A stretch of DNA of 64,000 bases, taken from an uncultured Leptospiraceae bacterium. Lineage in GTDB: Bacteria; Spirochaetota; UBA4802; UB4802. Location: the NCBI GenBank assembly GCA_964629365.1, contig CAZVRB010000004.1:18827-82826 (forward strand). The letters are read 5' to 3'. Shown one piece after another: positions 10,772 through 29,434 of the stretch (positions within the stretch are counted from its first letter, which is position 1; every line of letters begins with the position of its first letter). The translations under genes and the position numbers were made by a program. Under the pieces are notes generated by a model. The model saw nothing but the letters and a program-made list of their open reading frames with translations. It was not told the DNA's origin and made no database searches.

Positions 10772-10786
10772 TCGTATTATACAATA

Positions 10787-10810
10787 GATCCTCCCAAAAC
10801 CGGGAGGATC
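10787..10810. terminator. bidirectional terminator hairpin
   Basis: GATCCTCCC-AAAAC-CGGGAGGATC followed by TTGTTATTTC, between convergent genes. Confidence 0.5.
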
Positions 10811-10829
10811 TTGTTATTTCAACATTTCA

Positions 10830-12389
10830 TTATTTCATTCCGAAAAATGAACTGATGCTATTTATAATCTCATCTCCGTAATCTCCCAGCAATTCACCTG
10901 TACTTTTTCTGTGCTTAAGCTGCAGTCTTGATTCAGTTTCCAGCTTGCGGCTTGCCATTACTTTTGCAAGCTCTTCAATAACCTCCGGCCTTTTTTCCAG
11001 TATAGGGGCAAGGTCTTCCCTGGAAAATTCCATGGCCTGGCAATCGGTAAGGGCAACAATTGTGGCCGATCTGCGCTCACCTGTTAAAAGTGAGTTTTCC
11101 CCGAAACAATCCCCGGTTGCCAGGCGCTCCAGTTCAACCGGCTTGCCATATGAATCAAGACGGGATATGGAGATTACACCGGCAGTTAATACCATCAGGG
11201 AATCACCTTTGTCCCCTTCCCTGACAATGGTTTCGTTTTCCCTGTAACTATTCAGGGTTACCCTTTCCAACAGTTCTTTGCGCTCTTCTTCGGTAAGAGG
11301 CGAAAAAATTTCAACGCTGGATATAAGTTCGTCAAGACCGGGTTCAATTATTTCATTGCGCTCTCCACTAAAGACATTCACTTCATGAGCGGATGGTGGC
11401 GGACTTATTCCTGCCTTCTGGCAATAATTCCATATCTCCATGAAAAGGTCATCACGGGCGGCAAAATACGTGGGATAATCTTCAAAATATACAAAAACAG
11501 AGTAGAGATAAGGCCTGCTCGTCCCATCCGAGAGGCGAACTACAGGGGGAGGATCCTTCAAAACTTTTTTACAGCTGAGAGCTGCTTCCAGTAAAACCCG
11601 ACGTACGAGTTCAGGAGAGATATCAGGTGAAATTTCCATCTTGAACCATGTACAGTAAACCCTGTCAGGCAGGTTGTAATTATGGATTGTGGAGGACATG
11701 GCTTTTCCGTTGGGTACTACGTACACGCTCTTGTTCCATGACAAAAGTCTTGTTGAGCGCCAGTTGATATCCACAACCTTCCCAATAGTACCATCACCCA
11801 TCTCAATCCAGTCATTGATACGGTAGGGTTTCTCTATGCTGAGAGCTATACCCGCGAATATATCTCCCAGGGTAGTTTGCATCGAAAGACCTATAACCCC
11901 GGCAATAATCCCTGATGAAACAAGAAGACCGGTTACAGGGCGGTCAAACACAAAGGTCATAATGCCATAAATGGCAAGGAGGTATACCCCTATCCTCACA
12001 AGGTTTTGCAGTATGTTGGGAACATCCATACCGGTTCGCCGTTTTACCATCCCTTTCCATACAAATAAATCTACAGCCTGAACAATTATACGGGCAAAAA
12101 TCAACCATAGTAAAACGGTTCGACCACGAGTTATCATGTTCGCGATTCTATCATCAAGAATAGGACCAAGCCAGTTGAATACCAGTGCTTCAAGTGACAA
12201 TACAAATAGGGGCAAAAGCACTATCTGTATCAACCAGAAAAAACGGATTATCAACAGCACCTGCAAACGATCAGCTGCTTTTTTCAATATCACGTATATA
12301 ACAAAAATCACGAGGACCGGATACGCCATCTCAACTGGCAGGCTTGATGTACTGCCCTTGAGGTATTCCAATATCATATGCACATTCAT
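10830..12389 (-). CDS. MscS-family mechanosensitive channel with C-terminal cyclic-nucleotide-binding domain
   Basis: TM region plus MscS pore/beta domain (GDIFAGIALSIEKPYRINDWIE...VVPNG). C-terminal cNMP-binding domain (GDKGDSLMVLTAGVISI...GDCFGENSLLTGERRSATI). Confidence 0.8.
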   Translation of the reverse strand: MNVHMILEYLKGSTSSLPVEMAYPVLVIFVIYVILKKAADRLQVLLIIRFFWLIQIVLLPLFVLSLEALVFNWLGPILDDRIANMITRGRTVLLWLIFARIIVQAVDLFVWKGMVKRRTGMDVPNILQNLVRIGVYLLAIYGIMTFVFDRPVTGLLVSSGIIAGVIGLSMQTTLGDIFAGIALSIEKPYRINDWIEMGDGTIGKVVDINWRSTRLLSWNKSVYVVPNGKAMSSTIHNYNLPDRVYCTWFKMEISPDISPELVRRVLLEAALSCKKVLKDPPPVVRLSDGTSRPYLYSVFVYFEDYPTYFAARDDLFMEIWNYCQKAGISPPPSAHEVNVFSGERNEIIEPGLDELISSVEIFSPLTEEERKELLERVTLNSYRENETIVREGDKGDSLMVLTAGVISISRLDSYGKPVELERLATGDCFGENSLLTGERRSATIVALTDCQAMEFSREDLAPILEKRPEVIEELAKVMASRKLETESRLQLKHRKSTGELLGDYGDEIINSISSFFGMK

Positions 12390-12636
12390 ATCCTGTTCCT
12401 GATTACATGGAATATATTAACCACTTTAACAGAATACCCATAGTATATGCAAACCAGCTAGTCAACAACATTGTACTGGGTAACAGGGGATATTATTTTT
12501 CTTGATTTTTTTCGGAAATACCGGTAATACTATATTCTAATCTACATTGTTCATGCGGGTTTTTTGCATACCTCTCACACCGATAACACCTGCCCGTAAT
12601 AATGCAACGCGCACTCATCCTGATGGAGGATACGAA

Positions 12637-14205
12637 ATGCCGGCTACAGTAAGCAGTCTTGATGAATTAACCAGGGCAGGAACACTTCTTACACAGGAGT
12701 TGGACTTCAAATCATTGATCTCCATCATCGCAGAACAGACACTGGATATATCCCTTTCAGACCTGGCCTGCCTTTACCTGGCAAAAGACCCAGAAGACAA
12801 TAATAGTGATTTACAACTAGCATATAAGAGGGGAAGATATGATGTCCCTTCCCGTATAACAGCTTCAAGTGAACTGGTTGACTTCATACGAGAATCGGAT
12901 GAGACCGTTGTTCTTACAGATCGTAAAAGAAGCCCTTTTCTTGATATACTCTGTAATGAACATATGCATTGCGGCATCGCCATGCCTCTATCTACTCCCA
13001 AAATCATGGTGGGTATACTGGTACTTAACAGCATAGAACCTGGATTTTACAACAGGGAAAAGTTTAACTTTCTGGATTCATTTTCCAGGCTGGCAGGTGG
13101 CATGCTGCATAATTCCCGCATGTTCAAACAACTCAGGGACTACCTGCGGGAGATCGAAGAGTTGCATTTATACCAGGAAAGTATATTCTCTTCCATGACC
13201 AACCTGCTTATTACCACGGATAATAGTGGAGAAATTCAGTATTACAATACCGTGGCAGAAGAACGATTTGGACTATCCGACGAACAGAAGGGCAAAAAAT
13301 TTGATACAGTGTTTAAAGACTCAATGAACAGAAAGATAATCAATGCCATAAATTCTTCCATCAGGCAGCCAAAGGAAATGCCTGGAATAGAAGGTATTTT
13401 CCGTGATGAAGAAAAAGAGATGGATTTCTCACTTAATCTTTCACCGCTTAAAGGCCGTCGTGGTAAACACCAGGGATTAACCCTTCTATTCACCGACCAG
13501 ACCCGCGAACGCGAACTGGAAGAAAAAATGGAGCGGGTGGTTGAAGAGCGACGCGTCATCAAGGACATGTTCTCCCGCTACCTTTCACAGGAGATAGTTC
13601 AAACATTGATGGAGCAGCCTCACCTTGTGAAACCCGGTGGTGACAAGAAGGAAGCCGCCATCCTTTTCGCAGATATACGGGGATATACAACCTTCTCAGA
13701 AACCAAGCCTCCCGAATATATTATTGAGATGCTAAACGACTATTTCAGCGAGGCTGTTGAGATCGTGGTGAAACATCGAGGGTATATAGACAAGTTTATT
13801 GGTGACGCCATAATGGCTGCCTGGGGGGTTCCCCTGCAAACAGAACAGCAGGATGCCATATCGGCGGTTTCTGCAGCCCTTGAAATTCAACAGTTAATCG
13901 CTTCAACCAGGCGGACATTCTTCAAGGGAGATGCGTCAGTACTGAAGGTGGGCATAGGATTACATACGGGACCCATAGTGGCCGGCAATCTTGGAAGCTC
14001 ACGGCGTATGAATTACACCGTTATCGGCGATACTGTCAATGTAGCTGCCAGGCTTGAAGGTGTAGCAAAGGGTGGTGAAGTTATCATCACACAGAAAACC
14101 CTCGACTACCTGGGTAACCTTTTCGCGGTCAAAAGCCTCGAGCCGGTAAAAGTAAAAGGAAAAGCAGATCCCATTCCCATATACAGTGTGCTCAAACAAA
14201 ATTAG
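12637..14205 (+). CDS. class III adenylate/guanylate cyclase with N-terminal GAF and PAS domains
   Basis: CHD motifs AILFADIRGYTTFSE, FIGDAIMAAWG, GLHTGPIVAGNLGS and YTVIGDTVNVAARLE. GGAGGA RBS before ATG 12637. Confidence 0.8.
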   Translation: MPATVSSLDELTRAGTLLTQELDFKSLISIIAEQTLDISLSDLACLYLAKDPEDNNSDLQLAYKRGRYDVPSRITASSELVDFIRESDETVVLTDRKRSPFLDILCNEHMHCGIAMPLSTPKIMVGILVLNSIEPGFYNREKFNFLDSFSRLAGGMLHNSRMFKQLRDYLREIEELHLYQESIFSSMTNLLITTDNSGEIQYYNTVAEERFGLSDEQKGKKFDTVFKDSMNRKIINAINSSIRQPKEMPGIEGIFRDEEKEMDFSLNLSPLKGRRGKHQGLTLLFTDQTRERELEEKMERVVEERRVIKDMFSRYLSQEIVQTLMEQPHLVKPGGDKKEAAILFADIRGYTTFSETKPPEYIIEMLNDYFSEAVEIVVKHRGYIDKFIGDAIMAAWGVPLQTEQQDAISAVSAALEIQQLIASTRRTFFKGDASVLKVGIGLHTGPIVAGNLGSSRRMNYTVIGDTVNVAARLEGVAKGGEVIITQKTLDYLGNLFAVKSLEPVKVKGKADPIPIYSVLKQN

Positions 14206-14229
14206 AAACAATATTCCAAAGGAGGTTTC

Positions 14230-16812
14230 ATGGAAACATTGATACGTATCATTGAATCACTGCCCTTATGGGTTATATTGCTGTTCTTTGCGTTTTTTGT
14301 GGCTGTGATAGCAGATATTATATGGAGCATTAAGGCCAGAAAACGTATATATAACATACTGGCAAGGGCTGCTGATAACCCGGATAAAGCAAGTGACATT
14401 GTTGCACCCATCTTTAAAAAAAGATATGCCTTCATTCGTTCTCAAGCCATCGAACGATTCGCAAAAGAAGAGGGTAATGATATTATATATATAAGCGGCA
14501 TCGATCGTTACTGGATCCAAAACCTGTTACGACTGAAGAGAAAACGTGACTTTAACAGGATCATGCATTATGCACCCGATACGGGCCTGTTTACCTGTTT
14601 CCTGGTAAGCCTCGATAAAAAACGGTTTGCCAGGCTTCTTCTTTCATTTCTTGAAGAAAGTGGTGATTTTTTATACATGCGACGTGTTGCTCTTTCAGGA
14701 CAGGGTGAAGATTTCGACGGGGCCAGGGCCAGGGAAATGTTTCTTGATCATCTTGATGAGATCCGCGAAATGACCGGAGATCCCGAATGGGCTTCACGAT
14801 ATTTCGCTATTAAAATACTGCTCCATGATAATGACAACCGGTCCATTCGCGCATTGTGGGACGCATTCGAGGACTCATATCCACTGGTACGGAAAACAGT
14901 CGCTCACGAATTTACCACCGACGAAACAGACAGGCTGCTTGACAGGTTGACTGCACTCACCATAAATGATTACACCTACGAGGTTCGGCACACCGCATGG
15001 AATCGTATCATGAATGAATTCCCGGATTATCGTTTCCCCGATTCAAAAAAAATGAGCCAGACTCAATCATTCCATATTCTTGAGCTGCTGCGACCCGAAA
15101 TAAAAGAAGATGAGAACCTTGCTTTCTACTTTCTTGACCAAAATAACCTGGAATTGCGTCTTCCTGCGGCAAGATACCTGAAAGAAAACGCGGCACTTGA
15201 CAGGCTGTGCCTGGATGTAGACCTCGGAGATAAAAAATTACTGGAACGTAACTTCTCATTACTTGAAAAAGCTGCACAGGTAAACGTAACGGATTTTCTT
15301 GCTTGCATTGAGAAAACAGATAACCCCGCAAGCCTGCTTATATGTGCCCGCATTCTGCTGCAATCGGGTCCCCGTCATTTCATCACCACCCTTGCCAGAA
15401 AATCATTCTCCCTGTATGATGGTACCTCCCGGTACAGGGAGATATATTCTGCAGCACTTGATTGCGTGGCAGCCAGGGGTAACGATGACGCCCTGAAACT
15501 CATGGACCGTGAATTGCAAAAGCGCAAAGGGGAAGTTGAAACCCTGCCTGTATTATTAGAACACGTACCTCCTCATGCTGACCATATCATTCAGGATACA
15601 CTCATTGGTTTTTTGAAGGACGAAAAGATCAAGCCCAGGGATATTCTTCGCCAGGCCCTGGTTAAAATGTCCCCACCGCATGTCCTTGAGCAGGTACTGA
15701 AAATTTTGTATGCCGGGCGGGATGCCCATCCACATATTGTAAGGAAGGACGCCCTCAAACTTCTGGGGCAGATGGATCTTCATTACTGTCTGCAGCTTTT
15801 GCTTGAAAATCTTCCATCCCTGCCAGTGGATGAGGCATCCGAGTTCACCCGGATACTTTCCTCTTACCCGAAAAAGGAATTCAACTCAAGGGTAGGAGAA
15901 CTTCTTGATTCCGGTGATGCCAGGATTCGCGCTTCTGTAATAACGGCATTACCGGTTACCGGTGACAAGTCATTTATTAAACGAATCACAAAATCATTAA
16001 AAGACGCCGATCCGGACGTGCGAATAGCATCGGTCTGGGCACTGGTGAACTTCGAGGAATACAAGTCTCTTCAGCAGACCGTTGACATGCTGCGTGACCC
16101 GGTAAAACGTGTAAGGAAGGAAGTGGCAAGTGCACTGGGTTTACATGGTTCCGTTAAAATGATCAAGGAACTCAAACAGATACTTCATGATGAGAACGAA
16201 GTTGAACCGGTAAAGAATGCAGCAATCATCGGACTGGGTGCCTCAAAATTAAAGGAATCAATTGACATTCTCATTGAAAAACTTGAAGAGCCCGACAATG
16301 ATGATGAAAATAAACAACTTAGCCTTGCGCTGTCATCTAAAACAGATACAAAAGATGCCCGTCACCTGGTTGAACATTTCAAGGATGCCGATCCCTCTAT
16401 GCGTGAGAAGATAACACGTATCTTTATAATGATGGAAGAAAAAGGTGAAAAGATGCTTACCGACCTGCTCAGAGAAGACATCAAGTCATTGAATCCCTAT
16501 ATAGCCGAGATTCTTGATGCAACGGGCTATGTTGAAAGCATCATTCGCTCCCTCTCTCACCGGGATCCTGCTATACGACGCGATTCAGCCGACACTCTCT
16601 CACGGATAGGCACCAAGTCCGCGTTTCGGGGAATTGTCCTTGCAGCACGTGACCCAGACGAAGAAGTACGGGTAAAAGTAACAAGGGCACTTGAAAAACT
16701 GGAAACCAAAGAAGGCAAAAAGATTTTGGATGAACTTGAAAAGGATCCTGACAGAAAAGTACGTAAATATACACACTGGGCACTGGAAAGACTTCGATCA
16801 AAGTCATTGTAG
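14230..16812 (+). CDS. membrane-anchored HEAT/PBS-lyase-like repeat protein
   Basis: AAGGAGG RBS, one N-terminal TM helix, then repeated DPDVRIASVWAL / DPVKRVRKEVASALG HEAT-type repeats across 860 aa. Starts 24 nt after the cyclase stop. Confidence 0.65.
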   Translation: METLIRIIESLPLWVILLFFAFFVAVIADIIWSIKARKRIYNILARAADNPDKASDIVAPIFKKRYAFIRSQAIERFAKEEGNDIIYISGIDRYWIQNLLRLKRKRDFNRIMHYAPDTGLFTCFLVSLDKKRFARLLLSFLEESGDFLYMRRVALSGQGEDFDGARAREMFLDHLDEIREMTGDPEWASRYFAIKILLHDNDNRSIRALWDAFEDSYPLVRKTVAHEFTTDETDRLLDRLTALTINDYTYEVRHTAWNRIMNEFPDYRFPDSKKMSQTQSFHILELLRPEIKEDENLAFYFLDQNNLELRLPAARYLKENAALDRLCLDVDLGDKKLLERNFSLLEKAAQVNVTDFLACIEKTDNPASLLICARILLQSGPRHFITTLARKSFSLYDGTSRYREIYSAALDCVAARGNDDALKLMDRELQKRKGEVETLPVLLEHVPPHADHIIQDTLIGFLKDEKIKPRDILRQALVKMSPPHVLEQVLKILYAGRDAHPHIVRKDALKLLGQMDLHYCLQLLLENLPSLPVDEASEFTRILSSYPKKEFNSRVGELLDSGDARIRASVITALPVTGDKSFIKRITKSLKDADPDVRIASVWALVNFEEYKSLQQTVDMLRDPVKRVRKEVASALGLHGSVKMIKELKQILHDENEVEPVKNAAIIGLGASKLKESIDILIEKLEEPDNDDENKQLSLALSSKTDTKDARHLVEHFKDADPSMREKITRIFIMMEEKGEKMLTDLLREDIKSLNPYIAEILDATGYVESIIRSLSHRDPAIRRDSADTLSRIGTKSAFRGIVLAARDPDEEVRVKVTRALEKLETKEGKKILDELEKDPDRKVRKYTHWALERLRSKSL

Positions 16813-29361: not shown

Positions 29362-29434
<73 letters not shown>

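Follow-up and report, generated by a model that had tools for sequence, protein, structure and literature searches.

A GAF-cyclase and HEAT-repeat operon of free-living Spirochaetota, with a gene for a putative cyclic nucleotide-gated channel beside it in one clade

A gene for a predicted adenylyl cyclase and a gene for a HEAT-repeat protein, which follow one another in a 64,000-nucleotide stretch of DNA from an uncultured Leptospiraceae bacterium (GenBank assembly GCA_964629365.1, contig CAZVRB010000004.1, positions 18,827 to 82,826; hereafter the window), make up an operon of two genes whose conservation extends across the free-living Spirochaetota. The region containing them consists of two units, namely the operon itself (window positions 12637–16812) and, oriented divergently from it, a gene for an MscS-type channel with a C-terminal cyclic nucleotide (cNMP)-binding domain (10830–12389), a channel of the bCNG type that lies outside the conserved module. 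A preliminary description of this DNA had read all three genes as a self-contained module leading from a sensor through cyclic AMP (cAMP) to an ion channel; this proposal has survived in part, in that the cyclase has adenylyl-type residues, the phosphate-binding cassette of the channel is intact and the cyclase and HEAT genes are co-conserved, whereas the channel is not co-conserved with them. The new element is a phylum-wide operon joining a GAF (or GAF-PAS-cyclase) gene to a HEAT gene, with a modular output, a description of which we did not find in the literature; a search likewise retrieved no paper on the cyclase-HEAT pair.

Conservation of the cyclase and HEAT genes

An alignment-based scan with one genome per species (set 1) returned 160 stretches in which a relative is encoded, from which 80 loci were kept, and an independent metagenome scan (set 2) contributed 71 loci with enough sequence ahead of the HEAT gene; together, the two sets comprise about 150 loci. 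Those of set 1 come nearly all from Spirochaetota, among them Marispirochaeta, Oceanispirochaeta, Sediminispirochaeta, Alkalispirochaeta and many metagenome-assembled genomes (MAGs). All 78 set 1 loci with upstream sequence carry a homologue of the cyclase or of its GAF domain on the strand of the HEAT gene and directly before it, and a GAF-containing partner preceded the HEAT gene in 69 of the 71 loci of set 2. Clustering of open reading frames (ORFs) in set 1 recovered the cyclase and HEAT genes in 78 of 81 sources, with the next neighbour family present in at most 12. No conserved third gene was detected at the operon (commonest neighbour family, 12 of 81 loci), and a Pfam survey showed the neighbours to be heterogeneous and clade-specific (FHA in 6 and acyltransferase in 4 upstream, Peptidase_S49 in 10 downstream). 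Even the most divergent HEAT members, at 36–39% identity, remain paired, and when the cyclase was taken as the centre of two further look-ups, a HEAT gene lay downstream in both. The gap between the two genes has a median of 15 nucleotides (nt) in the first 75 loci, several of them showing 4-nt ATGA overlaps, and measures 24 nt in the window.

The partner encoded upstream of the HEAT gene is not always a complete cyclase. Stand-alone GAF proteins of 154–194 amino acids (aa) occupy this position in 10 loci, whose HEAT proteins take three separate places in a neighbour-joining tree (among them L028:117-644, L033:7361-7942 and L111:4486-5004; L029:7246-7767, L103:165-692 and L104:1661-2245; L141:459-932, L149:4342-4806 and L154:326-799), and a partner of 310 aa consisting of GAF and PAS only (L098:4013-4945) brings the number of reduction places in the tree to four. 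All of the short genes run up to the HEAT start or into it, leaving no room for remnants, which argues that they are clean truncations and not decaying pseudogenes. The recurrence of GAF-only and GAF-PAS partners at four places in the tree indicates that the constant core of the operon is GAF plus HEAT, and that the cyclase is its usual but dispensable output.

Other variants were observed at individual loci. In L135 (2486-4444) and L153 (2995-4953), the partner is a longer and more divergent GAF-PAS-cyclase (652 aa; 37–39% identity) whose catalytic domain scores weakly (3.5e-14). In L086 (4730-5805), where the HEAT protein is the most divergent of all (36% identity), the upstream cyclase is split into ORFs of 110 and 167 aa, perhaps through gene decay, a frameshift or faulty assembly. 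Upstream of the operon, L090 (3069-4998) encodes TrkA, a regulator of K+ uptake, together with a 159-aa ORF, directly adjoining on the same strand and 3 nt before the cyclase start, and two upstream neighbours in set 1 are CLC chloride channels; ion-transport genes may be recurrent at this position.

The two proteins of the operon

The cyclase gene (12637–14205, plus strand) encodes a protein of 522 aa that is predicted to be soluble, with a GAF domain (approximately aa 10–165, nt 12664–13131), a PAS domain (approximately aa 181–297, nt 13177–13527) and a catalytic domain (approximately aa 338–511, nt 13648–14169). Its ORF opens at TTG 12547, and we assigned the start to ATG 12637, because a GGAGG motif at 12625–12629 precedes this codon by 7 nt and because its nearest orthologues have the same length of 522 aa; the spacer separating it from the channel gene (12390–12636) is therefore exactly 247 base pairs (bp). 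The architecture was identified from Pfam, NCBIfam and profile searches together with the catalytic residues, with Pfam matches to Guanylate_cyc (1.2e-31) and PAS_9/PAS_4 and weak matches to GAF, the last of these confirmed by profile search.

The solved structures closest to the catalytic domain are those of Synechocystis Cya2 (2w01, 3e-37) and P. aeruginosa CyaB (3r5g, 8e-34). All 70 cyclase orthologues share residues D346, D390, K386, N468, R472 and K507, and position 461 is occupied by Thr in 36 and by Ser in 34 of them, with Thr461 in the window enzyme. By the established roles of these residues in class III cyclases, one chain supplies the two metal-binding Asp, the transition-state Asn and Arg and the phosphate-binding Lys, as in the homodimeric type, and carries the IIIb signature of an adenine-specifying Lys with Thr or Ser replacing Asp. 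The window protein is thus predicted to be a homodimeric class IIIb adenylyl-type enzyme that is otherwise ordinary. Wild-type Cya2, a guanylyl cyclase, has Glu and Gly where the window cyclase has Lys386 and Thr461, and this difference at the specificity positions therefore points to an adenylyl-type enzyme in the window.

The cyanobacterial class IIIb adenylyl cyclases CyaB1 and CyaB2 of Anabaena are soluble and carry two N-terminal GAF domains, then a PAS domain, then a class III domain with Lys and Thr. The window cyclase shares this domain order and the Lys/Thr pair but has one GAF domain instead of two, and its GAF profile did not retrieve GAF domains that bind cNMP. It further differs in having a dedicated, apparently translationally coupled HEAT partner, no counterpart of which our literature search found reported for CyaB1 or CyaB2. 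Searched against the PDB, the GAF profile matched the GAF domain of PtsP (3ci6, 8e-8), with the GAF domains of PtsP and HD-GYP proteins being the nearest. We considered whether the domain might be a cNMP-binding GAF supporting CyaB1-like autoactivation and rejected this, because the profile retrieves PtsP and HD-GYP GAFs and not those of phosphodiesterases or CyaB; an apparent NKFDE-like motif proved to be merely the generic C-terminal helix of GAF domains.

The cyclase stop codon (TAG, 14203–14205) is followed by a junction spacer of 24 nt (14206–14229), in which inspection revealed a strong ribosome-binding site, AAAGGAGG, at 14218–14225 and no terminator, and the HEAT gene (14230–16812, plus strand) starts at ATG 14230. 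Its product of 860 aa contains one hydrophobic segment, so that the distance, length and single-pass character given in the preliminary description all hold. Pfam matches comprised HEAT_2 (1.2e-33) in five stretches and HEAT_PBS (1.4e-5), and domain searches found no enzymatic, nucleotide-binding or cNMP domain in the protein. An AlphaFold2 model computed with 110 sequences is an all-helical solenoid of 53 helices (pLDDT 89.6), for which Foldseek returned only generic HEAT/ARM solenoids (SF3B1, CAND1 and PP2A-A among them) with TM-scores below 0.3 and identities of 12–15%, values that limit the similarity to known HEAT scaffolds to the class of fold. With PP2A-A, CAND1, SF3B1, the importins and CpcE/NblB, the protein shares the all-helical repeats and the D-P-x-x-x-V-R signature; it differs from them in its N-terminal membrane anchor and in belonging to a discrete Spirochaetota family of about 857 aa.

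The anchor lies at approximately aa 11–34 (nt 14260–14331), the peak 19-residue window of hydrophobicity covering residues 13–31. Each of the 110 family members carries a transmembrane segment, the net charge being about 0 before it and +4.5 after it, and by the positive-inside rule, about ten residues are predicted to face outward and the entire solenoid to be cytoplasmic. The family is sharply bounded, with 118 clusters of about 857 aa at 36–93% identity followed by a jump in E-value to 3e-7; of the best 150 representatives after clustering at 50%, about 85 are near full length, and none is a Rosetta-stone fusion with a GAF domain or a cyclase. Shorter variants of about 730–740 aa (P0440, P0448, P0457 and P0460) cover profile positions of approximately 180–856 and carry a different N-terminus of about 60–75 aa. 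The family, which otherwise comes from Spirochaetota, also includes members labelled as a 'Deltaproteobacteria' MAG (L036/L100, JAOUEW010000001.1) and as a 'Calditrichaeota' MAG (P0093), labels that could reflect mis-binning, mislabelling or horizontal transfer.

The channel and other genes beside the operon

The channel gene (10830–12389, minus strand) encodes a protein of 519 aa with about five hydrophobic segments, followed by MscS pore, beta and C-terminal domains and then by a C-terminal cNMP-binding domain, delimited by Pfam and homologue alignment at aa 381–466 (10992–11249, minus strand). Pfam matches were obtained to MS_channel_2nd (PF00924, 7e-18), MS_channel_3rd (PF21082, 1.5e-5) and cNMP_binding (PF00027, 2e-22), and residues 83–302 match structures of E. 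coli MscS, in which residues 29–241 are aligned. The preliminary description had given this architecture and placed the gene 247 bp from the divergent GAF-PAS cyclase gene; both statements are confirmed, and the domain architectures of all three proteins are backed by strong matches, showing that they do not stem from chance ORFs.

In the homologue alignment, the phosphate-binding cassette of the channel, GDCFGENSLLTGERRSATIVA, spans aa 426–446 (nt 11052–11114, minus strand), and this cassette, FGENSLLTGERRSAT, retains Gly430, Glu431, Arg440, Ser441 and Ala442. Conservation of these positions extends to at least 103 of 118 channel homologues, with Ser or Thr at position 441 in 98. Since the cassette is canonical, the cAMP-contacting residues are present, and it appears competent for cAMP binding; their absence had been named in the preliminary description as an observation that would refute the proposed module, and this objection falls away.

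A pore-lining helix and a cytoplasmic beta-domain homologous to those of MscS, combined with a cNMP-binding domain, mark the protein as a predicted new member of the known bCNG family. These channels are MscS-like and cyclic nucleotide-gated (Caldwell et al. 2010; Malcolm et al. 2012, cited in review PMC13591265), and a 2026 review describes the family as being without a known physiological role and without a solved structure (PMC13591265). The window protein shares with them the pore-lining helix and beta-domain, the C-terminal cNMP domain that follows and a length of about 500 aa; it differs in being spirochaetal, with about five hydrophobic segments, where bCNG channels have been described mostly in cyanobacteria (PMC13591265). 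Its homologues form at least 543 clusters from several phyla, with the same architecture in all 120 listed.

Co-conservation of the trio, on which the preliminary description had staked its module, was not borne out when followed from both the HEAT and the channel side. The cNMP channel adjoins the operon only in the window, L018, L001 and L002 (4 of about 150 loci), where the HEAT proteins are at least 73% identical and the surroundings show general synteny as well, including a GNAT gene, orf134 and orf233. Look-ups centred on the channel yielded three orthologues (44–46% identity) with no cyclase within 6 kb. An ORF with a cNMP domain lies near the cyclase-HEAT pair in 6 of 81 loci of set 1 and in none of set 2. 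In L077 (7214-7732, plus strand), a stand-alone cNMP-binding protein of 172 aa (PF00027, 2.3e-13) starts 18 nt past the HEAT stop and may be a third operon gene in that single lineage, and in L088 (529-2754, minus strand), a metallo-beta-lactamase (Apyc1-like) protein of 741 aa with a cNMP-binding domain, which may be a cNMP-regulated phosphodiesterase, is encoded 1.6 kb upstream of the cyclase.

In three clades, the operon has an MscS-family gene as its immediate divergent neighbour upstream, and these genes belong to three non-orthologous types with 22–25% mutual identity. The bCNG type of the window's clade is the first; the second (355 aa) occurs in L089 (3708-4775, minus strand), and the third (295–370 aa) in L078 (3906-4793), L055 (5240-6112) and L131 (1064-2176), all on the minus strand. 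An orthologue of the second type in L004 (148-1209, minus strand), 72% identical to that of L089, is 5 kb from the operon, with two genes inserted. No MscS gene was found among 71 downstream neighbours, and scans of the first 170 loci revealed no further one in the flanks. By chance, about 0.1–0.3 such events would be expected against the three seen, a rough and post hoc estimate that assumes MscS genes to be about 0.15% of genes and was not computed from the genomes studied. This recurrence hints at a looser functional tie between the operon and MscS-type channels, of which cAMP gating would not be the general basis, since the second and third types lack a cNMP domain.

An alignment of the divergent spacer itself (12390–12636) is possible for the three closest relatives only. 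A promoter scan of its 247 bp found no strong sigma-70 match, the best agreeing at 9 of 12 positions (12574–12603), and an Rfam search of the spacer returned no riboswitch or RNA element at the gathering threshold. The rest of the 64-kb window yielded no further cNMP or cyclase domain, and the flanking genes are unrelated (an AraC regulator, a nitroreductase, a ferredoxin, a GNAT protein and an MFS transporter). A GC-rich hairpin with a 10-bp stem at 10786–10811, between the convergent stops of orf233 (10771) and the channel gene (10830), is a candidate bidirectional terminator. The sole RNA gene detected in the window is a tRNA-Ala (CGC) at 29362–29434.

A possible role for the cyclase-HEAT pair

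Based on gene context, topology and domain type, we tentatively favour a model in which the HEAT protein serves the N-terminal sensor of the cyclase (GAF, possibly GAF-PAS) as its dedicated partner for membrane docking or regulation, and it is from these features that we infer physical contact between GAF and HEAT, membrane recruitment and any regulation. The HEAT gene would be translationally coupled to the cyclase gene, and its product would hold the soluble cyclase at the inner face of the membrane via the GAF domain, linking cyclase activity to any partner or signal that the solenoid recognises, with cAMP as the usual, non-obligatory output of the complex. In the window's clade only, the adjacent channel may read the cAMP made next door.

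In favour of this proposal are the conservation of the pair, the constancy of GAF as the partner, the membrane topology and purely scaffold-like fold of the HEAT protein and the catalytic completeness of the cyclase. The distances between HEAT proteins are also tracked best by those between GAF domains (r = 0.70, compared to 0.47 for the catalytic domain), although this mirror-tree signal is confounded by differences in evolutionary rate. Other points weigh against it. The partners of HEAT solenoids are of many kinds, and co-transcription could therefore reflect a shared pathway and not contact. Also, L132 (1-2371) and L136 (1-4809) have room upstream but no GAF gene before the HEAT gene, the position being taken by ABC permease genes in the former and by unannotated ORFs on the opposite strand in the latter; only these two such loci were found.

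The stable retention of GAF-only and GAF-PAS partners at several places in the tree would also fit a HEAT protein with a cAMP-independent function of its own, for example in organising membrane proteins such as MscS, with GAF as a small-molecule-sensing regulator and PAS-cyclase as a secondary read-out. A discrete, strictly length-conserved HEAT family and MscS genes beside the operon with or without a cNMP domain agree with such a function; we nevertheless consider it doubtful, because most loci by far have a full cyclase with invariant catalytic residues as the partner, implying strong selection on cAMP output, because no conserved neighbour suggests a client protein, and because MscS adjacency is confined to fewer than 10 of about 150 loci. 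A further reading, a dedicated and self-contained circuit in which the cyclase supplies cAMP to the adjacent bCNG effector under a shared divergent control region, with the HEAT protein as scaffold, draws on the adenine-type cyclase residues, the intact channel cassette, the 247-bp divergent arrangement kept in L018, L001 and L002 and the upstream, divergent MscS genes of three clades, which are three non-orthologous paralogues. It is unlikely as a general account, given that bCNG adjacency is limited to one shallow clade in which synteny is generally kept, that the other two MscS types have no cNMP domain, that bCNG orthologues at 44–46% identity are not near cyclases and that cNMP-domain genes accompany the pair in so few loci (6 of 81 in set 1, 0 in set 2); in the window's clade alone, such a circuit is possible.

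Two readings modelled on known systems were rejected. A class III-like cyclase beside a membrane protein with a cNMP-binding domain recalls Pycsar anti-phage systems, in which a cNMP-binding membrane effector kills the infected cell, and PADLOC models for PycC match the catalytic domain (7e-32) and those for PycTIR and other effectors the cNMP domain (2.6e-10). These matches, however, are confined to generic shared domains; the cyclase and channel genes are divergent and do not form one operon, the cyclase has GAF-PAS sensors and adenine-type Lys/Thr, its vertical inheritance throughout the phylum is shared with HEAT, not with the effector (adjacent in 4 of about 150 loci), and the neighbours are housekeeping or metabolic genes with no defence-island context, making a Pycsar-like role exceedingly improbable. 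Hardly more credible is that the HEAT protein acts as a PBS-lyase of the CpcE/F or NblB-like kind, loading or removing a chromophore on the GAF domain of a light-regulated cyclase. GAF domains do have the bilin-binding fold of phytochromes, and weak matches to HEAT_PBS and to NblB and CpcE models were obtained, but these reflect the repeat type only, with scores far under the family cut-offs (NblB, 49 bits against 300; CpcE, 18.6 against 330). Moreover, the GAF alignment has no conserved Cys, its sole Cys column varying between C, A, V and G, and the nearest GAF structures are those of PtsP and HD-GYP proteins, not phytochromes.

A more far-reaching and rather improbable idea is that GAF(-PAS-cyclase) and HEAT form a signalling complex of spirochaetes for the state of the membrane (tension or osmotic), with MscS channels as companions. 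The anchored, elastic HEAT solenoid would sense this state and act through GAF, and in the window's clade, the cAMP-binding MscS channel would close a loop from cAMP to ion flux. Membrane potential has long been proposed to carry signals along spirochaete cells, and if such a loop exists, it could bear on this proposal.

Bacterial class III cyclases are usually viewed as self-contained fusions of sensor and enzyme. Here, a soluble cyclase has a phylum-wide genetic partner, a membrane-anchored HEAT solenoid, which is kept by the GAF half after the enzyme has been lost. The pair thereby yields a testable hypothesis for an uncharacterised HEAT family and a possible route to localised or regulated cAMP synthesis in spirochaetes. 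The window's clade, in which a cyclase gene adjoins that of the channel, offers a natural setting in which to seek a role for bCNG channels, and the other MscS genes found at the same position are worth testing as well.

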